Source of the DNA: Candidatus Hodarchaeota archaeon
GTDB lineage: Archaea; Asgardarchaeota; Lokiarchaeia; Sigyniarchaeales; SOKP01
NCBI GenBank assembly: GCA_048886685.1
Contig: JBHLKM010000002.1
Coordinates: 103,532 to 167,531 of the forward strand
DNA length: 64,000 bases
Reading direction: 5' to 3'
The notes beneath the pieces are model-generated. The model was given only the letters and a program-made list of their open reading frames with translations, was not told the origin of the DNA and ran no database searches. The translations under genes and the position numbers were made by a program. This document shows, piece after piece, positions 8,122 to 22,318 of the stretch; the stretch's first letter is position 1, and the number at the start of each line of letters is the position of its first letter.

Positions 8122-10491
8122 TTATTTCTTTTCAAAAACTTTAGCCATTGCCTCCAAATTTTTTCTTAATTTAGGGCTATCTGGTATTTTTTCTAATTGT
8201 TCAGTATATATTGGGTAATATATATGCAAAATACTTAATATTTCAATCCAAGATTTCTGAGTTTCTGTTTTATCAGGAATTTCCTTTTTTAATTGGAATA
8301 AAACTCTCTTCTCTTTTTTTGCTTTTAGATTTTTGAGAAAAGTTTTAGTAACTATAATTCGAAATTTAGAGTACTCCTCAGGTCTGAAATTCACCAAAGA
8401 ATAATTCATATTATCATCCGCGAAAGGTAAAATTCTAATCCTTTTATCCTCAGGCTCATTTGGATTCTCAACTAAAGAGATTTCAATATTACTCTTGTTT
8501 AGATCTTCCAATATGGGATATAATTCTCCAGGTGTTATTCTTGTAGCTAATTCAATTTCATTAGAAATCTCAGATATTGGTATGTAAAATTCAGGCATTT
8601 TTTTTGGATTTTCTAACCTATAATTATATTCTTTTTTAATTATTTGGATTATCACAGATTTCAAATTCTCTGTAAACTGCTCAGAAGTGAAAGAAATATC
8701 TGCCTTTTTTAGTTTTTCGTCATGTAATTCTTTATCTTTTTGTTTCTTACTAAAATCAGAAGTAAGAGATGATATAAAACTATTTGTGGTGTTCCCTGCT
8801 TCAGCATCTACAGTTAACCTGCTAGTCTTTCTATCTTTCTCTAAAGCCATTTCTAAGATTCTCTCGCTTAGATATCTTCTTGCCTTTTGCTTGGCGACTC
8901 CTTTCTTCTCAAAACGTTCAGTAACGGATACAAAATCAATCATTTTTATCGGTTTTCCTAAATCCTGTTTTTCTTCTTTAATTAAAATATCCATATCCTT
9001 TTTTACCAATTGTTCAAGTAGTGCATAAACATTTCCCTTCGATAATTGCGTAGCTTTAATTAGCTCTCGCTCAATTATTTCGATCGGGTAAGCGTCACCT
9101 CTCCTAATATATTCACCTCTAATAATTTTATAAATTCTTTCCATACTCTCCTCTTCTGCGCTTACGGTCTCTTTTTGTAATCTCATGAACATAGATGTTT
9201 CGTGAGGTTTTAAATAATAAATTAAGATAGTGCTACCCAAGAAAAAAATCATTAGAACTGAGATTATGTATTTATCAGCCATTAATACGATTCCAATATC
9301 GGTAACTATTTGGTTAGTTATTTGACTTGCTATGGCAAAACGAGTTAATGTTTGAGCAAATACACAGGCTAGACAAAGCAAAATTAGGCCGTCTTTTTTA
9401 AAGAAAAGAATTCGCCACCCAATTGTCTGCCCAGTTTTTCTTATAATTCGAAATAAAAAATACATAGAAATTATAAATTCAAATATGTATATGTATGACG
9501 CTGGTGAACCCGTTGCCCCGATTGTTGCCTTAAAAGCTGTAACTGTATCATCTTGAAGAAGCATATATATACTAATTTGCAAAATCTGAAAGAAAAAGAT
9601 AAACAAAACAATTAAAGAAAAGGTAAAGTTGTCAAATGTACCTGCTCTTTTAGTTTCTGCTCGTCTTCTAGTAAGCACAAATTCAAAAATAATAAAGACT
9701 AATGTCATAACTAAGCTGAAATAAATCAGTGGCATGATTACACGCATTTCTAAATTATAAACCTTAACCGCACTAGTGGGATCAACATCTCCAAAAAATT
9801 CTAAAGATAACCACACCAAAAAACTCCTATAAAATAAGGAAATTATAACAAGTATGCCTAAAATAAAAAATGGAATAATTATCGCAAAGAAATATCTTGG
9901 AATTGAATATTTTTTAATAAATCTTGCTTCTATTTTTGTTGAAAATTTCCTTGAATAAATATAAAAGCGACTACTTAAGAGAACTAACCAAATCATTGCT
10001 AGAGTTAATAAATATGTCATAAAATTAAAATCTGTTGAAATATATAATAATAGCAGATACAATACAGCAAATAGAACGCAATATAATATCAGTTGCTTAA
10101 TTACAGTTTTTTCTTCAAAAATAAATATTCTTATTTTATCTACGCTAAACAAAAAAGACAATACTAAAAATAATGCGACAATAGTATTTGAAAAAACAAA
10201 GGGATTACCTAACATCAATAAATTAATCCAAGTACTTTCTGGAATGTTAATAGCAGTAATCAATAGCAGTGAATATATAGCAAATATTCCATATAATCCA
10301 TAAAATCTTCGCTGGAAAGAATATGACTTTGGTTCTTGACCATCTACATAGACTTCTTGATGGACTATTTTATCATGATAAAAAGCTGATAACGTATTTT
10401 TTGTTTTTGATGTGAAGCCCTTAACTTTTTTTTTAACCCCAATTTTTCCAGGTTTTGACTTTTTTGAAGAATCCGATTGCTTATTAGACAT
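8122..10491 (-). CDS. Multi-pass membrane protein with a duplicated winged-helix-like cytoplasmic region
   Basis: About 11-12 TM segments in the N-terminal half; two similar soluble blocks (IIRGEY..PIEIIERELIKATQLSKGNVYALLEQL and IIKKEY..PISEISNEIELATRITPGELYPILEDL). Confidence 0.75.
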   Translation of the reverse strand: MSNKQSDSSKKSKPGKIGVKKKVKGFTSKTKNTLSAFYHDKIVHQEVYVDGQEPKSYSFQRRFYGLYGIFAIYSLLLITAINIPESTWINLLMLGNPFVFSNTIVALFLVLSFLFSVDKIRIFIFEEKTVIKQLILYCVLFAVLYLLLLYISTDFNFMTYLLTLAMIWLVLLSSRFYIYSRKFSTKIEARFIKKYSIPRYFFAIIIPFFILGILVIISLFYRSFLVWLSLEFFGDVDPTSAVKVYNLEMRVIMPLIYFSLVMTLVFIIFEFVLTRRRAETKRAGTFDNFTFSLIVLFIFFFQILQISIYMLLQDDTVTAFKATIGATGSPASYIYIFEFIISMYFLFRIIRKTGQTIGWRILFFKKDGLILLCLACVFAQTLTRFAIASQITNQIVTDIGIVLMADKYIISVLMIFFLGSTILIYYLKPHETSMFMRLQKETVSAEEESMERIYKIIRGEYIRRGDAYPIEIIERELIKATQLSKGNVYALLEQLVKKDMDILIKEEKQDLGKPIKMIDFVSVTERFEKKGVAKQKARRYLSERILEMALEKDRKTSRLTVDAEAGNTTNSFISSLTSDFSKKQKDKELHDEKLKKADISFTSEQFTENLKSVIIQIIKKEYNYRLENPKKMPEFYIPISEISNEIELATRITPGELYPILEDLNKSNIEISLVENPNEPEDKRIRILPFADDNMNYSLVNFRPEEYSKFRIIVTKTFLKNLKAKKEKRVLFQLKKEIPDKTETQKSWIEILSILHIYYPIYTEQLEKIPDSPKLRKNLEAMAKVFEKK

Positions 10492-10667: not shown

Positions 10668-10946
10668 ATGATAAAGACTAAAGCAGAAAATAGAGAAAGC
10701 CTGATAAGTCTAGTAAAAAAGGCAATTGAGTTACTTTGCGAGAAAAACATTTCAAGTGTTGTAATTTTATCTTCTTATAAGATCAATTCTGTTCTCCGTG
10801 AAAACTATGGAGTAGATATCAAAGTTGATAGAATAGGCAGAATTTTAAGTCGGGTTGCTAAATTAAATCAATTAAAAAGATTAAATACAAATATTCCGAA
10901 ATATAAATTACAAATTTCAAAGGTATCTAGTCTACAATTCTTTTAA
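10668..10946 (+). CDS. Small basic hypothetical protein, possibly winged-helix
   Basis: 92-aa ORF with an HTH-plus-wing-like pattern (SSYKINSVLRENYG...VDRIGRILSRVAK...PKYKL). Confidence 0.65.
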   Translation: MIKTKAENRESLISLVKKAIELLCEKNISSVVILSSYKINSVLRENYGVDIKVDRIGRILSRVAKLNQLKRLNTNIPKYKLQISKVSSLQFF

Positions 10947-10954
10947 AAACAAAC

Positions 10955-12304
10955 TTATGTTATATTGCGGAAATCAGTAATTGTTTTTTGGAGTTTTTCA
11001 AGCAAAATTTTTATTTCTGAATAACTTTCTTTGATTGGTTTTAATTCCACTTCTATTTCTTCAAACCTATCATCAATTTGTGTTTTAACTGGGGTTGTGA
11101 CTTTCTCTATATGTTCAGTTATGTCTTTTGTAATATTTTTTATATCCGCTTCCGTATCTGAAGCTAGGTTGTTTAAATCTGTAATCACAGTTGTCATTTG
11201 GGAGTTTGAATCTGAGGTTTTTTCCAAATTATTTGCCAAATTTTGGATTTTTTCCTCTAATGGGGAAATTACATTTTTAATTTGTTCAGCAATTTGGTTT
11301 TTTGCTTCTTTGATTGTTGCATTTAGAATTATTGAAATTTCATTTTTTAATTCCTTTTGACCCTCAACACGTCTATCAATATATTCAGTTACATTCTTCT
11401 TAAAAAGTCTTGAAATTTCTTCAAAAGTACTATTAAAAAATTTCTGTACATCTCTTAAACCATCCGAAACAGCATTTTTTAATTGGTTTAGGGATCTACT
11501 AATGTGTTCCATACCTTTTAGAGTTCCTTGAGACACTTCATTAACCCAATCATTAAATTGTGTTTCATAAGTCATTCCAATCGCTTCATTTAATTTAGTC
11601 AATCCATTGGTAAAACCAGATATTACCTTATCTACCTGTCCTGAATAATCTTTAATACTTTCTTCTATTAAATCGTCAGCTGAAAGAGGGATTTCTTGAA
11701 GTTCTCCTAAAGATTGTTCCTTTAATTCTTTGATTATAACTGGAGATAAACTTTGAGAGTCCTCTACAAATTTTTGTACCCATTTAAAGAAATTCAGGTT
11801 TGCAGGTATCTCAACTTCATAAGAGACTTCCAGGTAATCTTTTGATTTTTTATATTCTTTTAATGTATAAATTTTAAAGTCAAACTCTTTCTCTTTACCC
11901 ATGAGTGTGTGATCAAAGATAACTACAAAACAATAAGGATTTTTCTCCGTTTGGAAAAATTTATGATTTTGAATTGTAATATCAGTAAAATCAAGACCCC
12001 AGCCAGGTCGAGAAATATACCATCCTACTATCTTCATATCCTTTTCTTGGTATTCCTTATCTAATCTAACAAATAAATCAATATCTTCTTTATTAAAACC
12101 AGTTGATACATGAATTCCATGTTGAATGGGAATAATATTAATTAAATTGATCACCTTACTCGCTTCATCAATCTCACCAATACAAATGCCCATTACCTCA
12201 ACGCTTTCATCTAATGCCTCATTTCCAAATCTTAACACATGAGTTATCATTCTAATCAGTGCATCAGCTTTAATTTTGACTTCAAAATTATCTATCGATG
12301 GCAA
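10955..12304 (-). CDS. MPN domain protein with degenerate JAMM motif (MPN-) and long coiled coil
   Basis: EVMGICIG...IVGWYISRPGWGLDFTDIT lacks the HxH and Asp zinc ligands; heptad-rich C-terminus; TTG start 6 nt after the upstream stop. Confidence 0.85.
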   Translation of the reverse strand: MPSIDNFEVKIKADALIRMITHVLRFGNEALDESVEVMGICIGEIDEASKVINLINIIPIQHGIHVSTGFNKEDIDLFVRLDKEYQEKDMKIVGWYISRPGWGLDFTDITIQNHKFFQTEKNPYCFVVIFDHTLMGKEKEFDFKIYTLKEYKKSKDYLEVSYEVEIPANLNFFKWVQKFVEDSQSLSPVIIKELKEQSLGELQEIPLSADDLIEESIKDYSGQVDKVISGFTNGLTKLNEAIGMTYETQFNDWVNEVSQGTLKGMEHISRSLNQLKNAVSDGLRDVQKFFNSTFEEISRLFKKNVTEYIDRRVEGQKELKNEISIILNATIKEAKNQIAEQIKNVISPLEEKIQNLANNLEKTSDSNSQMTTVITDLNNLASDTEADIKNITKDITEHIEKVTTPVKTQIDDRFEEIEVELKPIKESYSEIKILLEKLQKTITDFRNIT

Positions 12305-12310
12305 TTTTCT

Positions 12311-13801
12311 CTACTCATCTCCCTTTTCTATTTTTTTAATTTTCTCTAGTAATCCTTGATTTTCAGCCCTGAGATCCTTTACAGTCTTTTGTAAATCCTT
12401 ATTTTCAGTTTGTAGAGTGTTTATTTTATTTTTGATTGGATTCTTAGAACTATCTAACAATATTATTGCTGCTTTTAAATCAGATAAATAATTTTTAGTT
12501 TCTTTATTTAGATTATTAAGATTACCCTTAATTCTACTTACTCTTTTATTAAATGATGTTAATAAATCCTCTTGTGCGGTATTTAAATCATTTTGGATTA
12601 AATTATCAACAGATTTATATGTTTCTATATAATCTTTTAAAGCATTGGTTCCTTTCTTTAGATTTTCAATATTATTTGAAAAATTTTTATTAAACTCTGT
12701 TAAAGTATTAGATGTTCTTGTATTTTCCTCCAAAAGCTGATTAAATTTTGCATCCTTAAAGGGGATATTAATTTGGTTTTTATAATCTTCTTTCGAATTG
12801 TTAACCAATTCTTTGATATTCTCCTTTTCATTATCTAATTCTTCAAGTTTATCATCAACATAGAAATCTATATCTCTTAAATCGTTCTGTAAATTATAAT
12901 TAAAAGATTGCTGCAAATTAATAATTTCTTTACTCAATTTATCTCTTATTTCTTTTAAATCATTCCTCATCCCTGAATTATTTTGGCGAATCTTGTTGAC
13001 TATATCTTGCCCCCAAGTATTAAGTAAAGAAGCCATTGGTCTAATGGTTAATTCTAGAAAATTATCCATCCCTTGTTTTAAAGTTGAAATTATTTCCTCA
13101 AAATTAAATTCAGGTAATTTCGATTCTATTTGTTCTTTTTCAGGAATAAAAACATCCTTAAATAAATCAATTGTTTCATTTAGTTCAAGAATTTGAGGGC
13201 TTCTTGTATGAACAGCATTTATTAATTCTATTATCTTTAAAAAAAAATCATAATTATCAGGTGGTTCGATAGTAGCTTTTACTTCATGGTAATCTGATTT
13301 TAAAGCTAATGAAGGATCATCTAATCTTGTTTCACTCAATCTAAATGCCCTAAATCCTAGATCGTTAGGCTTATCTAAGTAAGTATGGTCAAATACAAGT
13401 CCTACACCACTAGGATTTTTTTGCCAAAATATTTGATTATATTTGTCAGTCTCACTAAAGAAAATACCTAAACCTGGGTGAGAATGGTACCATCCCACTG
13501 AAAACCACCCTAGATCGCCATATTGCTCCCATATTTTTGTATCTAATTCCCCAAATGCCCCTAATTGATCCACTGAGAATTTTACTTCAATTGTACCTCC
13601 ATGAGAAACCGGTACTACATCTTCAACTATAACATTTTTAATTTCATCCTCTCCTTCAAGATGACCAATCAGAACCCCCATAACTTCTGATAATTTTAAA
13701 TGTTCTATATTTTTTGATCCAAAACGCAAAACATGTAGTAACATTTTATAATACGCAAGGGGTTTAATCGTTACTATACTTTGATCGCTGCTTTTCCCCA
13801 T
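12311..13801 (-). CDS. MPN+/JAMM metalloprotease (Rpn11/CSN5-like) with long coiled coil
   Basis: EVMGVLIG...GWYHSHPGLGIFFSETD is an intact E..HxHx7Sx2D motif. ATG 13801 (MGKSSDQ) with upstream GTGA is preferred over the track start at 13870. Confidence 0.9.
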   Translation of the reverse strand: MGKSSDQSIVTIKPLAYYKMLLHVLRFGSKNIEHLKLSEVMGVLIGHLEGEDEIKNVIVEDVVPVSHGGTIEVKFSVDQLGAFGELDTKIWEQYGDLGWFSVGWYHSHPGLGIFFSETDKYNQIFWQKNPSGVGLVFDHTYLDKPNDLGFRAFRLSETRLDDPSLALKSDYHEVKATIEPPDNYDFFLKIIELINAVHTRSPQILELNETIDLFKDVFIPEKEQIESKLPEFNFEEIISTLKQGMDNFLELTIRPMASLLNTWGQDIVNKIRQNNSGMRNDLKEIRDKLSKEIINLQQSFNYNLQNDLRDIDFYVDDKLEELDNEKENIKELVNNSKEDYKNQINIPFKDAKFNQLLEENTRTSNTLTEFNKNFSNNIENLKKGTNALKDYIETYKSVDNLIQNDLNTAQEDLLTSFNKRVSRIKGNLNNLNKETKNYLSDLKAAIILLDSSKNPIKNKINTLQTENKDLQKTVKDLRAENQGLLEKIKKIEKGDE

Positions 13802-13942
13802 TTTTAATTCACTTGTTTTTTCAAATTTATGATATATATATAGTTTGTATGGTTTTAAATATTTGAACAAATAGTATTTAATTTAAAAAGGTCGATATTT
13901 ATAAATTACAATTATAATCTAATTTGATAAATAAGCTAGGAT

Positions 13943-14602
13943 TTAGTCATGGGGTAATGGTTTACCGCAATAAGGACAAAATTTCCAATCTAAATCCTTG
14001 CCACAGTGTGGGCAAAAACTCGAAGATGTTGAACTTGTTGGCGTTATTTCTGCAGCTCCTTCTTTTGGTATGGATGGTAATTGTCTTGTTGTCTTCAAGG
14101 TTGTAGTTGTTGAAGCTGTAGGTTGTTCTTCAGCCTTTCTAGCCGCTACTTTTTCTCTAAAAGCTTGTCTTCTCTCTTCATCGAGTTCTTGTTGGCTTTT
14201 TGTAGTTTCTGTTTTAACCCATCCTTGACTTTGTGTTCTTTTTAATTCACTTGCAGGTACTTTTTCTAACTCAACTCCCTTAGTTTCCGATATAGGGGCT
14301 ACAACTTTCCTTTCCTCTTTCTTTTGAATTGCTTGTTTAACCAAAGCCTGCGTAGTTTTCATCACCTGATGAGGGTTAATATTAGGAATTGCCACTGTAC
14401 GTAAAACCCACCCAACGATCAAATTTTGGTTTGGAAACCCTCCTTCGGTGTCCTCATCTTTATAGACATATGACTCAATTATATCCCTTCCTTTTAATAA
14501 TCGTGAAGCCCATTTGCCATTAATTAATCCTAACTGTATTCTATAGCTGGTTCCTGGTATACCTAATTGACTTGATAGTGGTTCAAATCCTCTTTCTGTC
14601 AA
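13943..14602 (-). CDS. Hypothetical protein with C-terminal double zinc ribbon
   Basis: Globular N-terminus, low-complexity linker, CPHCG...CPYCG. Confidence 0.8.
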   Translation of the reverse strand: MTERGFEPLSSQLGIPGTSYRIQLGLINGKWASRLLKGRDIIESYVYKDEDTEGGFPNQNLIVGWVLRTVAIPNINPHQVMKTTQALVKQAIQKKEERKVVAPISETKGVELEKVPASELKRTQSQGWVKTETTKSQQELDEERRQAFREKVAARKAEEQPTASTTTTLKTTRQLPSIPKEGAAEITPTSSTSSSFCPHCGKDLDWKFCPYCGKPLPHD

Positions 14603-14865
14603 TTTTAATCACTTTTTAATTTTTTAAATAATAATTTTTTGAATCAAGTAACATTATAATGGTAAATTTTGAATTTAAATTATTATTTATTTCATTGTAA
14701 AATTTATTATTATTATTAAAAATTTTATGGAATAGGCTAATATATAGGACATTAAATCTCTCATTTATCTTTATGCGATGAAAAAGACATAAATACAAAA
14801 AGTTGTATTAATTTGTAAAAAGCTATTTTAAATTTAATTTTAAAAAAAAGAATTGTGGTCAAAAA

Positions 14866-15822
14866 ATGACTGTAATAATACCCAAAAAAGTCTATCTAAC
14901 TATCGTAGCCGCGGCTGTAAGATTTGCAAATGCACGAATACCAAAAGATGAATGGCTTGAAGTTAGTGGTATTTTCACTGGTAGAAATGAAGGGAATAAT
15001 GTTATTATATCTGCCGCTTATCCTATCATGCATCAAAAACTAGATAAAGATGCTGTGATTGATCAGTACAAATGGTCTGATGAAGATTATGAATCCCTTT
15101 ATATTATTGATGATGAAGCCTTTTCAAGAGATCCTCCGGAATTTGTGGTTGGCTGGTGGCACTCGCATCCTGGATTTAAGGTTATGATGTCCCATATCGA
15201 TATTCGTACGACACTATCTTATCAACAAAATAACCCTTTAGCGATTTCTCTTGTATTCAACCCTCAACGGTTAATACGTCAAATCGAAGTTGCTGATAAA
15301 AAGGGAGATCCAGATATACAATTAAAAAATGATCCTGGTTTTAAAATCTTCAGATTAGATGATGTAAATAGTGGAATCGAAGCATCTTACCATTCTGCCG
15401 ATTATAAAATTGAAGGGTATGAAAGTATGGAACAATTAATAAATTTGACGCAAAAATTTATTGTAGACGTAACTAATTTATTCCCAAAAGAGAAAGTACC
15501 ACAGACTTATGATAAAGTAATTGATGAGAGAATAGAACAGTTAAATTCCTTGCTACTCGGTACTGAAGAATATCTAACAACTTTAACTCGGCACGGGGAA
15601 ACTCAGCGTATCCCTGAAGTCTTAGAAAATCAGAATGAAGAGATCAATAGATTTGTGGAAGAAACGAATAAAAGAATAGACTTTATTAAACAATTCAAGG
15701 AATACTTAGAATTCAAGGAAAGAGAAACTATAATACCTCAAATAGAAAAGTCAGTATCTAAATGGGATGGAGCTGTGGCTGGTTTGAGTAAAAAATTGAA
15801 AGAAATCTCCAAAAAGTTTTAG
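14866..15822 (+). CDS. MPN+/JAMM metalloprotease with helical C-terminus
   Basis: LEVSGIFTG...GWWHSHPGFKVMMSHID intact JAMM motif. Confidence 0.9.
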   Translation: MTVIIPKKVYLTIVAAAVRFANARIPKDEWLEVSGIFTGRNEGNNVIISAAYPIMHQKLDKDAVIDQYKWSDEDYESLYIIDDEAFSRDPPEFVVGWWHSHPGFKVMMSHIDIRTTLSYQQNNPLAISLVFNPQRLIRQIEVADKKGDPDIQLKNDPGFKIFRLDDVNSGIEASYHSADYKIEGYESMEQLINLTQKFIVDVTNLFPKEKVPQTYDKVIDERIEQLNSLLLGTEEYLTTLTRHGETQRIPEVLENQNEEINRFVEETNKRIDFIKQFKEYLEFKERETIIPQIEKSVSKWDGAVAGLSKKLKEISKKF

Positions 15823-15959: not shown

Positions 15960-18164
15960 ATGAAAAAAATTAATTTTCCGTTTACAGCAATACTTGGGCA
16001 AGATAAAATGAAGATGGGTTTGATACTTAATTTAATTGACCCACTAATCGGAGGGATCTTAATGACAGGTCATCAAGGTACAGGAAAAAGCACTGCTGTA
16101 CGAAGTCTCGTGGAATTAATGCCTCAAATCGAAGTTATAAAAGGTTGCGAATTTTCATGTGTCCCTTATTCAGATATTGATGATTTATGTGAAAGATGTA
16201 AAGAAAAAAAAGAGAATAAAAAAGTTGACACAGAATTTAGGGACATGTGGCTAGTAAATCTACCCTTGGGAGTTACAGAAGATATGGTTTGTGGCTCTTT
16301 ATCCATTGATAAAGTCCTTACAGAAGGAATAAGAGCCTTACACCCAGGATTATTAGCTAAAGCAAATAGAGGTATTTTATATGTAGATGAAATTAATCTA
16401 CTACAGGATCACATTGTAGATGTTCTTTTAGATTCTGCTGCTTCTGGTGTTAATATAATAGAAAGAGAGGGTATTTCTGTATCTCATCCCTCTAGATTCG
16501 TTCTCGTAGGAAGTATGAATCCTGAAGAAGGTGATTTGAGACCGCAAATTGCTGACAGACTTGGTTTAGAAGTTAGGATCAGAGCTCCTAGAGATAATGA
16601 ATTAAGAGCTGAAATCACAAGAAGAGTTATTGATTTTGATGATAATCCTAAGGAGTTCATTAAAAAATATGAAGATCAACAAGACAAATTAAGGCAAAAA
16701 ATCCTTAATGCTCGTAATATATTAAAAGAAGTTCAAATCCCTAATTCTGTTTATGAATTTGTATCTAAAATTGTTAGTGAATTAGAAATCTTCTCTCAAA
16801 GAGCTGATATTACCTTCATTAGATGTGCCAGAGCTCATGCTGCATTAAATGCAAGGAAAATTATAGTGGAAGAAGATCTAAATGTGGCAATGGATTTAGT
16901 ATTTGAACACAGAATTCAATCACTTCATTATGAAATGACACCCGAAGAGATAAAATCTAAGATTGCTGAAGTTTACGGGAAAATTAAAGAAGCTTATGAA
17001 GATACTAATGTACTTCAACCTAATAGAGAAACAGAAGGACCTTTAAAACATGATGATACTTCTCAAAAGGAGTTCAAACGTCAATCAGTCGATCCAGATA
17101 AAGTAGATATACCCGAGTCGAGAGAACAGAAACTTCCCCCTCCAAAATATCCTGATAATAAGAAGAGAAGCCCTAAACCTGCTGGAGGTTGGAAAGTTAA
17201 AAATATACCTTTTGATGAGGATTTCAGATTTTTTGAGGCTAAAAGTACATCCCTACCATTCATTTACCAAATGGAAAAAAAGATGACCTCAATACTTGAC
17301 AATATTAGAAAAGATCGGAAGATTTCAGATTATGGGGGCAGAGGAATAGGAAGGAGAATTAAAATATCTTCCTCTCAAAAGGGTAGATATGTATCATACA
17401 GAACACCAATAAGCGAAAGCCCAAAAAGTATTGCTTTAGATGCCACAATTAGAAATTACCTTAAAAATATAGTATATAATGAAACTGATATAGAATTTCC
17501 AATACATTTTAATAAATATGATTTAATGGATAAAATCTATGAATATCGTGCTCCTTTAGCTCTCTTTTTTGTACTTGATAGTTCAGCATCAATGTATTAT
17601 GTTATTAAACAGATGACAGATGTAATATTATCTTTACATCGAGAAGGCTTTAGAAAAAGAGATAAAATAGCTTTGTTAGTGTTTCGTGGAAAACAAGCAG
17701 TAGTCCTTCAGAAACCGACAGTAAATTTTAAAATGGCAGTAAATAAATTGAAAAAAATCGAGGGAAAATCCTATACTCCAATGGCAGCAGCACTTAAAAA
17801 AGTATCAGAACTAATAAAAGTTGAGAAATTGAAGGATAGAAATATAATCCCGATTGTTTTTATTTGTAGTGATTGTGGTGCGAATATCTCTGTTAAATAT
17901 CCTGATATGATTGCTCAAGTTGAGACTGATTATGTATTAATCACTCAGGAATTAAAAGAATTAACCAAGAAACTATCGAAACAGAAGATTCATATGGTAG
18001 TTCTAGAGCCAAAGAAATCTTATGCTACTCAAGCACTTGGAGTTCACACATATTCCGCCGAAAAAATAAAAAAGAACTTCAAAAAGTATGCCAGTGCCCA
18101 AATATACAAGTTCAATAAATATAATCCCAATTCTCTGATACTAGAATTGAAAAAAATTTTGTAG
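15960..18164 (+). CDS. ChlI/ChlD-like (Mg/Co chelatase family) AAA+ ATPase fused to a vWA domain
   Basis: FPFTAILGQ, GHQGTGKST, PGLLAKANRGILYVDEINLL, MNPEEG; Pro-rich linker; vWA DSSASM...YTPMAAAL. Confidence 0.9.
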   Translation: MKKINFPFTAILGQDKMKMGLILNLIDPLIGGILMTGHQGTGKSTAVRSLVELMPQIEVIKGCEFSCVPYSDIDDLCERCKEKKENKKVDTEFRDMWLVNLPLGVTEDMVCGSLSIDKVLTEGIRALHPGLLAKANRGILYVDEINLLQDHIVDVLLDSAASGVNIIEREGISVSHPSRFVLVGSMNPEEGDLRPQIADRLGLEVRIRAPRDNELRAEITRRVIDFDDNPKEFIKKYEDQQDKLRQKILNARNILKEVQIPNSVYEFVSKIVSELEIFSQRADITFIRCARAHAALNARKIIVEEDLNVAMDLVFEHRIQSLHYEMTPEEIKSKIAEVYGKIKEAYEDTNVLQPNRETEGPLKHDDTSQKEFKRQSVDPDKVDIPESREQKLPPPKYPDNKKRSPKPAGGWKVKNIPFDEDFRFFEAKSTSLPFIYQMEKKMTSILDNIRKDRKISDYGGRGIGRRIKISSSQKGRYVSYRTPISESPKSIALDATIRNYLKNIVYNETDIEFPIHFNKYDLMDKIYEYRAPLALFFVLDSSASMYYVIKQMTDVILSLHREGFRKRDKIALLVFRGKQAVVLQKPTVNFKMAVNKLKKIEGKSYTPMAAALKKVSELIKVEKLKDRNIIPIVFICSDCGANISVKYPDMIAQVETDYVLITQELKELTKKLSKQKIHMVVLEPKKSYATQALGVHTYSAEKIKKNFKKYASAQIYKFNKYNPNSLILELKKIL

Positions 18165-18273
18165 ATAATGGTTTTAAAAATACAAAAAAAATATTAGTTA
18201 GAATTGTAATAATCAATTGAACTTTTAACTAGATCTTCTATAAAGTTCTTAAGTTTATAATTCTAATTGATAT

Positions 18274-19524
18274 ATGATGGATTTAAGTACCAAATCTGTT
18301 TTAGTTGTAGGATTTAATACACGTCCTTTAGCTTACTCTTTAAAGAATGCTAATTATGATGTATATGCAGTAGATTTTTTTGGAGACATTGACCTTTATC
18401 CAAACATTAAAGATAGTTTGGTTCTAACAAAAGAGTTAGAGACAGATTATGAATCAATTAGGGATAATTATAGCAAGTTACTCTCTAATTTTACGATAAA
18501 AATGTTGAAAAAATATCCCGAAATAGATTATTTAATCATAGGGAGTGGAATAGACGATGCCTATGAAGAAAGAGAAGCGATTTTTAATGAAATAAAAAAC
18601 AAAGATTACAAAATAAAGAATTTAAATAACGATGTTAAAACTCTAAAAAAGGCACGAGACATCATTTTTATTTATAATCTCTTAAAATCAAACCAATTTA
18701 ATGTTCCTTTTACCATTAATTACGATAATCTAAGATCATATAAGAGAAAACTTCAATTTCCAATCATATTTAAGAAATATAAAAGTGCTGGTGGCATAAA
18801 CGTTTTCAAAATCGAAAATTTTGAAGAACTCACCACATTAATTAAATATTTAGAAGTAAAGAAGTTCAATTCATCTGAATGGTTAATCCAAGAATACGTA
18901 GATGGAATGCCTATCAGTTGTACAACTATTTCGAATGGTAATGAATGTGAAATTATTTCAATTAATCGCCAAATTATAGGAGAACAATTTCTAAACTCCC
19001 CCAAAGAATTCATGTATTGCGGTAATATCGTGCCTGCTGATTTAAGTAAGGAAGAGGATGAACTAATTACAAAGATATCTAAAACTTTAGCTAATGAATT
19101 AGGTTTAAAGGGTATTAATGGTTTTGATTTTGTGTTAAAAGAACATTATCCATATTTAATGGAGATTAATCCGAGAATACCTGGTTCTATAAGAGCATCT
19201 GAAATGAGTTATGATATAAATCTCATGGATTTACATATAAAGAGTTTTGATTTGGATAAATGGGATCTCATTCAACAATTAATACGTTCTAAAAAATTAA
19301 GTGGATTTTCAACTAAATTAATTATATTTGCTCCAAAAGAAATAAAGAAAAGCCATATCTCTAAAATAAACAATCTTGAATACGTTCATGATAAAAGTAC
19401 ACCAAATAAGAATACCCTGAAAGGTGAACCTCTATGCACCATTTTATATAAAGGAGGAGATTTATCAGAGTCTTATAAAGGAGCGATAGATATTGTGAAT
19501 AAAATTAATAATATTATTAATTAA
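18274..19524 (+). CDS. ATP-grasp protein of the archaeal C1-cofactor-biosynthesis-associated type
   Basis: AVDFFGDID, K..SAGG, QEYVDG, YCGN, GINGFDF, EINPR. Confidence 0.85.
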   Translation: MMDLSTKSVLVVGFNTRPLAYSLKNANYDVYAVDFFGDIDLYPNIKDSLVLTKELETDYESIRDNYSKLLSNFTIKMLKKYPEIDYLIIGSGIDDAYEEREAIFNEIKNKDYKIKNLNNDVKTLKKARDIIFIYNLLKSNQFNVPFTINYDNLRSYKRKLQFPIIFKKYKSAGGINVFKIENFEELTTLIKYLEVKKFNSSEWLIQEYVDGMPISCTTISNGNECEIISINRQIIGEQFLNSPKEFMYCGNIVPADLSKEEDELITKISKTLANELGLKGINGFDFVLKEHYPYLMEINPRIPGSIRASEMSYDINLMDLHIKSFDLDKWDLIQQLIRSKKLSGFSTKLIIFAPKEIKKSHISKINNLEYVHDKSTPNKNTLKGEPLCTILYKGGDLSESYKGAIDIVNKINNIIN

Positions 19525-19539
19525 TGGCTTTTATTTTTT

Positions 19540-20277
19540 CTACTGAATTATCGCTTTAATTTTGGCAATATAGGAACCTATTTTCCTTCCATCTGCCTCA
19601 GGAACTGCAAGTGCTAGAATTCGATTCTCGTCTAAATCATGAATAATAACAGATCCATTTTCTCCCCCAATAATAGAATATTCCATACTACTTTCTAATA
19701 AAACACCAGATAAATTATACAGAGCTGCTACCATTGCCGAAAGAATTGGTTCAGGCATAGTTGATTGTATTTTTATAGGTAGCCCATCTTTAGTAATAAT
19801 CGCTAGTACCAGTGTATTGGGAATTGCTCTTTTCAATCCCTTGAATATTTCTTCCTTTAAGATATCAGAAGTTTCTATTATTGCTGAAATTTGTAATGCT
19901 AATTTTTGTAATTTACTAATGTGTGAATCCAATCCTTCTAGTTCTGCAATTTCTCGATTTAAATAAGCTATCATAGTTATATTGTCAGTCAAGATAGAGA
20001 GCACTATTCGGTCCTTTCCTGTAATTAAATTATATGCGACTTCTTGATTTAAAGAGTCTTTCAACATCTTAGATGATAGGAATACGAGGCTACTATTGGC
20101 AGCTGTAATCTCACCCATAGTCATTTCAATCGATTTCTTAAACCTATTGGCAATCTTCGTACCTTCTGGTGTCCCTACATTAATTCCTAATATAGCAGAA
20201 GTAGATTCAAGCTCCTTCTCTATTAGTGTGGAAACATCAGATTCTACTTCCTCAATAATTTTATCTTGGTCTTCCAT
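19540..20277 (-). CDS. Tandem roadblock/LC7 (MglB-like) domain protein
   Basis: Two roadblock patterns: ILGINVGTPEGTKIA...ITAANSSL and VLAIITKDGLPI...LSAMVAAL...IGGENGSVII. Confidence 0.8.
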   Translation of the reverse strand: MEDQDKIIEEVESDVSTLIEKELESTSAILGINVGTPEGTKIANRFKKSIEMTMGEITAANSSLVFLSSKMLKDSLNQEVAYNLITGKDRIVLSILTDNITMIAYLNREIAELEGLDSHISKLQKLALQISAIIETSDILKEEIFKGLKRAIPNTLVLAIITKDGLPIKIQSTMPEPILSAMVAALYNLSGVLLESSMEYSIIGGENGSVIIHDLDENRILALAVPEADGRKIGSYIAKIKAIIQ

Positions 20278-21514: not shown

Positions 21515-22318
21515 ATGGATGAGTACGAATTAAAAAAGCTTTTGGATACAAAAGAAAATCTTTTACGCTTAAAAGATGAACAATTACAAACTATGGAAAA
21601 TTCTTTAAATTTAAAGGATGAACAAATAAATACTTTAAAGAATTCATTGAAGATTAAAGATGAAAAAGCTTTAACGCTAGAAAAAACGATTGAGCTTAAA
21701 GATGAAGAAATCAGAAAATTAAATGCAACTTCAATAGATCCAAGTGCTCTAAATGAGAAAGATGAGAAAATTGAGCAACTTGAAAAGGAACTAGAAATAC
21801 TTAATAATGAATTAGCTAAGGCGGATGAAGAATTGGAGAGTTTAGAACTTGAAAATGAGAAATTAAGAAAGGCTGATTCTAGTTCTGCAGATGGAATTAT
21901 CGATTTTACAAATGTGCAAATCACTAAATCTGAAATTCTTGAAAAAATGAGAGAAGTATTACTAAATAATGCAATGGCTAATGTAACGATAATTGTTCCT
22001 AGTATTGAAGATTTACAAGAACTTTATTTGTATGAACTTCGATCATCTGTTGCTATGAATATTGCCTGCTCAATTAATCCTGGAATTGATGAACACTCTG
22101 AGTTGCTTCAGGAATTCGAGTCATTAGATAATATTTCAATCAAAAATTATGAACACGGAGATAGATACGGTGTAATTCGAGATGGAGAAGAATTACTTAT
22201 TGCAGTTATAGGAAGATCGGAAAATAATCATTTGGTGTTCCATACCAAAGACCCGAAGCATATTCGTTTATTAAATTCCTTAATAACAGAATCTTGGATC
22301 CGAAGCAGGAAAGTATAG
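21515..22318 (+). CDS. Coiled-coil protein with TrmB C-terminal/PLD-like domain
   Basis: 14-aa repeats (LKDEQLQTMENSLN-type), then an alpha/beta domain containing VIRDGEELLIA...LITESW. Confidence 0.7.
   Translation: MDEYELKKLLDTKENLLRLKDEQLQTMENSLNLKDEQINTLKNSLKIKDEKALTLEKTIELKDEEIRKLNATSIDPSALNEKDEKIEQLEKELEILNNELAKADEELESLELENEKLRKADSSSADGIIDFTNVQITKSEILEKMREVLLNNAMANVTIIVPSIEDLQELYLYELRSSVAMNIACSINPGIDEHSELLQEFESLDNISIKNYEHGDRYGVIRDGEELLIAVIGRSENNHLVFHTKDPKHIRLLNSLITESWIRSRKV

Follow-up and report, generated by a model that had tools for sequence, protein, structure and literature searches.

Pairs of MPN domain proteins, in which an MPN+ subunit works beside an MPN− partner, are central to the proteasome lid, the signalosome, and BRISC. 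In the complex of BRCC36 and KIAA0157, the two MPN domains contact each other through helix 1 and a helical bundle (PMC4579573), and an earlier account stated that MPN+/MPN− organisation was unknown in archaea (PMC6043591). Here we examine two adjacent genes, A (MPN+, with a JAMM motif) and B (its MPN− paralogue), in a 64,000-nucleotide (nt) stretch of a Candidatus Hodarchaeota archaeon genome (assembly GCA_048886685.1, contig JBHLKM010000002.1, positions 103,532 to 167,531; hereafter the window). The genome, of 4.4 Mb and 31% GC, is a metagenome-assembled genome of the Lokiarchaeia (Promethearchaeota), as are its relatives. A literature search found no published description of the A/B pair. 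On balance, we favour the view that A and B form a convergent MPN+/MPN− heteromer that arose by local tandem duplication and is co-translated, with A as the catalytic subunit and B as a scaffold, activator, or substrate holder.

Genes A and B are full-length tandem paralogues

Gene A reads from an ATG at 13801 to its stop at 12311 and encodes 496 amino acids (aa); an in-frame TTG at 13870 would give 23 extra aa, and most relatives use the ATG. Gene B begins 6 nt past the A stop with a TTG at 12304, ends at 10955, and encodes 449 aa (Table 1). Both genes, and a third MPN gene, C, pass the Pfam JAB cut-off. A and B align across their whole length (24% identity, E 1e-35; in a profile-profile comparison 100%, E 6e-75, 398 columns), and C aligns with A across the MPN domain only. 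The MPN fold with the Glu and H-x-H-x7-S-x2-D residues is present in A and in C (E32, H99, H101, S109, and D112). In B, I97, R99, T107, and T110 replace H, H, S, and D, and E36 is retained; with its MPN fold kept, its zinc ligands gone, and its sequence under selection, B is an MPN− pseudo-enzyme. The first-pass annotation of the window had placed four open reading frames where we find them, with an intact JAMM in A, a paralogue without zinc ligands 6 nt after the A stop, and a third, divergent gene with an intact JAMM, all of which we confirm.

The predicted structures of A and B each comprise an MPN head, a following helix, a conserved linker modelled with low confidence, and a continuous helix of ~240 residues, which we call the stalk. 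The mean predicted local distance difference test (pLDDT) values of the two models are 63 and 70, and therefore local features alone were used. Coiled coils of 250–300 aa had been proposed for this part; the long helices are present, but in both proteins the heptad (7/2) period is confined to the distal stalk and an 11/3 period prevails near the head. The stalks of A and B are colinear and nearly gap-free in alignment, and residues of helix 1 and the linker are conserved in both.

Table 1. Features of the A/B locus in window coordinates (res, residues)
Feature	Position	Strand	Description
Gene A, MPN+ (JAMM)	12311..13801	-	MPN res 10-178, helix 184-199, conserved linker, helical stalk 253-492
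Gene A catalytic residues E39, H106-x-H108, S116, D119	13445..13687	-	From sequence; invariant in the A alignment
Gene A stalk, res 253-492	12326..13045	-	Hydrophobic period 3.64, then 3.58, then 3.54
Gene B, MPN- paralogue of A	10955..12304	-	MPN res 8-164, helix 170-184, linker, stalk 211-448
Gene B cassette, res 56-120 (Ins-1 and dead site)	11945..12139	-	Strongly conserved; apparently exchanged between lineages
Gene B stalk, res 211-448	10961..11674	-	Hydrophobic period 3.68, then 3.58, then 3.50
Gene C, divergent MPN+ paralogue that has a helical tail of ~130 aa	14866..15822	+	Own clade
219-aa protein with C-terminal zinc ribbon	13943..14602	-	Upstream of A
92-aa small conserved protein	10668..10946	+	Convergent with B; synteny kept in nearly all of the family
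789-aa multi-pass membrane protein	8122..10491	-	Syntenic neighbour; weak winged-helix match at C-terminus

The pair is confined to one order in the sample, and only B loses its active site

Within the genomes sampled, the A/B pair is restricted to one lokiarchaeal order. It is retained, with a full-length B orthologue, in 22 of 23 genomes of the same genus, and the A profile matches all 39 genomes of the family and one of three genomes of a second family in the order; pairs also occur in genomes G025, G036, and G038, all of the same order. At 1e-35, this profile had no match in 157 other Asgard genomes, a sample that includes incomplete genomes, in which not found does not equal absent. A profile of the B head alone reached at most 77 bits among the matches listed outside the order, in frames of 250–330 aa. 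A and B lie within 57 nt of each other in 78 of 79 pairs.

Immediately ahead of an A/B pair with both copies intact, two more MPN genes are found, both of them short and degenerate (locus L030:4447-5839, G038), and another degenerate MPN gene is found at L042:6970-7635. G038 also has a second A/B pair (L033:3195-5271), in which both stalks are ~120–130 aa shorter and B is dead.

The asymmetry between the copies is strict. Among 79 non-identical pairs, the A motif is intact in all 76 in which it could be scored; for B, 26 motifs are intact and 53 degenerate. The degenerate copies show over 20 patterns, which include a lone Glu-to-Gln change (13), an Arg in place of the second His (7), and full loss as in the window (10), as well as replacement of the first His by Ile, Val, Leu, Cys, or Thr. 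The live or dead label of B changes at least nine times on the A tree, a count that gives no direction. Because A, C, and the deep B copies (L030, L032, and L075-78) are intact, the intact state is likely ancestral for B.

B is a local sister of A within the order and stands outside the eukaryotic MPN− lineage, because it is sister to A, is intact in 26 of the 79 pairs, and is nearer to Rpn11 than to Rpn8. A lokiarchaeal MPN tree, built by a quick method, with long branches present and eukaryotic sequences left out, places all A and B copies in one group (Shimodaira-Hasegawa-like approximate likelihood ratio test, SH-aLRT, 95) apart from C (99). A profile built from dead B heads only gave 38 bits with Rpn11 and 21 bits with Rpn8, with CSN5 and BRCC36 also above Rpn8; CSN6 and Abraxas were not among the matches listed at E 1. 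The best structural matches of the A and B heads are Rpn11, CSN5, and BRCC36, and the B model matched Rpn11 with a Z score of 18.5 (root-mean-square deviation 3.4, 158 aligned), Abraxas, ABRO1, and CSN6 chains with about 15–16, and Rpn8 with 14.5. An ancient Rpn8- or Abraxas-like origin of B is rejected on the strength of the census, the changes on the A tree, the dead-B profile, and the MPN tree. A likeness of the dead motif to Abraxas gained no support from the profile search, an absence that does not amount to exclusion.

The dead site is conserved and its cassette conflicts with the rest of B

The ratio of non-synonymous to synonymous substitution rates (dN/dS) of the dead B against five close relatives is 0.14–0.21 overall and 0.03–0.12 over residues 90–120; it is 0.10–0.15 for gene A and 0.12–0.31 in other dead B lineages. 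The dead site is among the best-conserved stretches of B. Dead B is under purifying selection and is therefore not the lineage-specific decaying duplicate that the first-pass annotation had considered.

The dead motif of the window clade recurs in a second clade (L013, L017, L098, and L104) that otherwise groups with intact copies. Over residues 93–112, this second dead clade is nearer to the window clade than to the intact copies (85% versus 42% identity), and the order is reversed in the flanks. L027 is intact yet nested in the second dead clade, and P0090 is dead within an intact clade; both mosaics rest on assemblies, in which misassembly is possible. The tree of B residues 56–120 conflicts with that of the rest of the gene, and neither grouping survives approximately unbiased (AU) tests on the partition of the other (p 3e-74 and 1e-6), with groups picked after inspection of the data and a cassette that includes the trait itself; convergence could add to the cassette signal. 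At its non-catalytic cassette residues, L027 shares 72–78% with intact copies as compared with 45–49%, and such sharing beyond the catalytic residues favours recombination. Because the two partitions differ in the AU tests, the sequences imply that live and dead B cassettes were probably swapped between lineages by recombination. A dead site that is both conserved and exchanged suggests that it may have taken on a binding role.

A proposed A/B heteromer and its rivals

In the mechanism that we propose, A and B stem from an active JAMM protease with a stalk that was duplicated in tandem within one lokiarchaeal order, as the trees and the distribution show. The two genes, with gaps of 0–15 nt, would be co-translated, and their products would form a heteromer in which the heads are joined through helix 1 and the post-domain helix and the two stalks run in register. 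A would provide the zinc site and hydrolyse the isopeptide or peptide linkage that follows a ubiquitin-like modifier, an activity which, like the label "deubiquitinase", is assigned from the protein family. B would be required as a scaffold, activator, or substrate holder; its catalysis would be dispensable, and lineages have therefore lost it in separate ways, as their sequences show. In the window lineage, a dead site that was conserved and swapped with live versions may have gained its binding role in this setting.

Of the enzyme/pseudo-enzyme heterodimer suggested at first pass, the conserved and coupled pair stands, and modelling lends weak support to A–B binding. The A+B complex scored 0.59 (best control 0.00), with runs agreeing on at least 80% of contacts and a partner pLDDT of at least 67; the modelling covered A with B only and reports no interface. 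In the benchmark, 58 of 80 solved pairs and 2 of 110 mismatched pairs came up to the mark; of these, only seven solved pairs and both mismatches scored 0.60 or less. In L033, a single case, both stalks end early at a matching point (near residue 360 in A and 331 in B). The conservation of helix 1 and the linker in both proteins, the period gradient common to the two stalks, the retention of the pair, and the selection on dead B also speak for this mechanism.

Several points weigh against such a heteromer. The model score may reflect likeness to solved MPN-MPN dimers or the kinship of A and B, and their co-divergence (rho 0.86) is as expected for any neighbours. L056 is the sole uncoupled case in the 79, with B 6 kb and three genes from A. 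The "dead" and "active" calls are read from motifs alone. Archaeal CsRpn11 is monomeric and active alone (PMC6043591). Ubiquitin, E1, and E2 genes adjoin A/B in none of the loci examined, and the genome's ubiquitin operon carries its own, more Rpn11-like JAMM.

More tentatively, the pair could be a JAMM heteromer, obligate in these archaea, that has repeated independently the origin of eukaryotic enzyme/pseudo-enzyme deubiquitinase pairs. All stages would be extant (two active copies, a Glu-to-Gln change, loss of one ligand, loss of all), with live and dead cassettes swapped between species by recombination and at least one apparent reactivation (L027). A/B would offer a natural series of a duplicated protease becoming an enzyme and a scaffold. 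The live and dead B alleles of close relatives allow a direct test of whether the need for the partner came first or the loss of catalysis did, and they also bear on the function of the dead site.

Alternatively, A and B may act apart as homo-oligomers, with dead B as a stand-alone binder or a competitive inhibitor for the same modifier. Each paralogue has all parts for self-association, JAMM homodimers are frequent in crystals (PMC6043591, PMC4579573), and the dead site is highly conserved; the strict asymmetry, in which B alone ever dies, the tight coupling of the genes, the matched stalk truncation in L033, and the weak pass of the A–B model argue against it. We consider separate action unlikely, if the most credible of the alternatives.

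Next in order, and also improbable, the pair may chiefly be a structural rod or membrane-binding scaffold, with amphipathic, apolipoprotein-like 11/3 stalks and heads directed at a non-ubiquitin target such as the adjacent membrane protein. The proximal stalk period of 3.64–3.68 points in this direction, as do sub-threshold Apolipoprotein matches, the multi-pass membrane gene, whose place beside the pair is conserved and extends to a different family (L030), and the lower score of A with Rpn11 (32 bits versus 60 for the ubiquitin-operon JAMM). However, matches below the cut-off arise with any long amphipathic helix, fold searches with the stalks returned generic long-helix matches only (Z about 8), and the membrane gene is not co-transcribed, with a convergent gene in between.

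A direct line of descent, in which the ancestor of Rpn11/Rpn8, CSN5/CSN6, or BRCC36/Abraxas also gave rise to the pair (with C), is very improbable, and this tells against the proto-lid/CSN/BRISC module envisaged at first pass. An MPN+ gene does adjoin an MPN− gene, helices follow both, and the top structural matches are to Rpn11, CSN5, and BRCC36; yet B groups with A in one order (SH-aLRT 95, in the tree without eukaryotic sequences), is intact in a third of pairs and in deep-branching members, and is MPN+-like in its dead-head profile (38 versus 21 bits, with CSN6 and Abraxas not listed at E 1), and no pair was found in the 157 other Asgard genomes. That B is a decaying duplicate is scarcely credible, since its many different catalytic losses and faster evolution (mean distance 0.66 versus 0.55 for A) are set against a frame that stays open over 420–470 aa in practically all of the relatives, a dN/dS well under 1, and a dead site that ranks among its most conserved stretches.

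Gene C and other neighbours

A, B, and C are part of a lokiarchaeal expansion. The idea of a three-MPN module gains no support, as C forms its own clade and is separable from A/B. It lies near them in 54 of the 68 loci that could be scored, and several A/B loci lack it; in G029 it and the zinc-ribbon gene lie together at a distance from A/B, and in G024 and G031, in neither of which A/B was found, it adjoins TBP. Gene C orthologues in L009, L019, L023, L024, L053, L086, and L104 carry hairpin-forming inserts of 30–32 nt at one site in the JAMM motif (window 15177/15178; the window copy has none). The inserts disrupt the frame or introduce a stop and look like archaeal bulge-helix-bulge mRNA introns.

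The source genome has seven JAB genes. One shares its operon with genes for ubiquitin-like, E1, and E2 proteins, and a second accompanies E1 and E2-like genes. With yeast Rpn11, the ubiquitin-operon JAMM scores 60 bits, C 36, and A 32; because it outscores A and C, the CsRpn11-type role is probably filled by this JAMM (contig C1) and not by A/B. Its cluster (L166, G000 C1:127668-133021) encodes two ubiquitin-like proteins with acidic N-terminal extensions, ending in Ala-Gly instead of Gly-Gly, along with E1, E2, and the Rpn11-like JAMM. The second cluster (L006, G000 C11:779-3881) comprises a GTPase-like gene, a short JAMM, E1, and an E2-like gene.

The zinc-ribbon gene noted at first pass is present upstream of A in 65 of the 73 loci that could be scored, but the ribbon occupies just the last ~22 aa of its 219-aa product, a possible adaptor. 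The 789-aa membrane protein belongs to no named protein family and is still close to A/B in L030, a locus from a different family. Searches of a protein atlas with the zinc-ribbon and membrane proteins returned their own clusters only, and a promoter scan, made with a bacterial model on an archaeal host, was at chance level. In most of the family, C is followed by a ChlI/ChlD-type AAA+ and vWA fusion, with 82–94% identity among members of the genus, and by an ATP-grasp gene (window 15960-19524). Beyond them lie a tandem Roadblock/LC7-type protein and a coiled-coil protein (window 19540-20277 and 21515-22318).

Comparison with known systems

The pairs BRCC36-Abraxas and BRCC36-KIAA0157 (ABRO1), which form the core of BRCA1-A and BRISC (PMC4579573), resemble A/B in having MPN+ and MPN− subunits, each followed by helices able to bundle, and in not needing PCI subunits. 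Their bundle consists of two short helices, whereas each A/B stalk is a continuous helix of ~240 aa. Unlike in BRCC36-Abraxas, the MPN− state in A/B appears recent, repeated, and reversible. A scan without a positive control gave no match in the genome to BRCC36_C or the Abraxas-type MPN (PF18110, PF21125).

Rpn11-Rpn8 of the proteasome lid and CSN5-CSN6 of the COP9 signalosome likewise pair an active with an inactive subunit, and they provide the best sequence and fold matches of both A/B heads. B is nearer to Rpn11 than to Rpn8, and their C-terminal regions are unlike those of A/B; the Rpn8/Rpn11-type C-terminal bundle (PF13012, PF18323) had no match in the genome, in a scan with no positive control above the cut-off. 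The PCI matches in the genome, a 788-aa tandem winged-helix protein, a HEAT-repeat protein, and a 1468-aa protein, are all unlinked to A/B, and none looks canonical or lid-like as judged from sequence. The tandem winged helices of the 788-aa protein (L049:88-2454, G000 C5) match PCI, DDRGK, and UFL1, and its C-terminus has a weak VPS28 match.

CsRpn11 of Caldiarchaeum subterraneum and the JAMMs of Asgard ubiquitin operons (PMC6043591) are archaeal and Rpn11-like, with Ins-1, and the source genome too has ubiquitin-like, E1, and E2 genes. CsRpn11 is a small protein that acts as a monomer from within a ubiquitin operon (PMC6043591), whereas A/B lie outside such an operon. The design of A/B is thus like that of BRCC36-Abraxas or Rpn11-Rpn8, and it most likely arose convergently and is not their ancestor.

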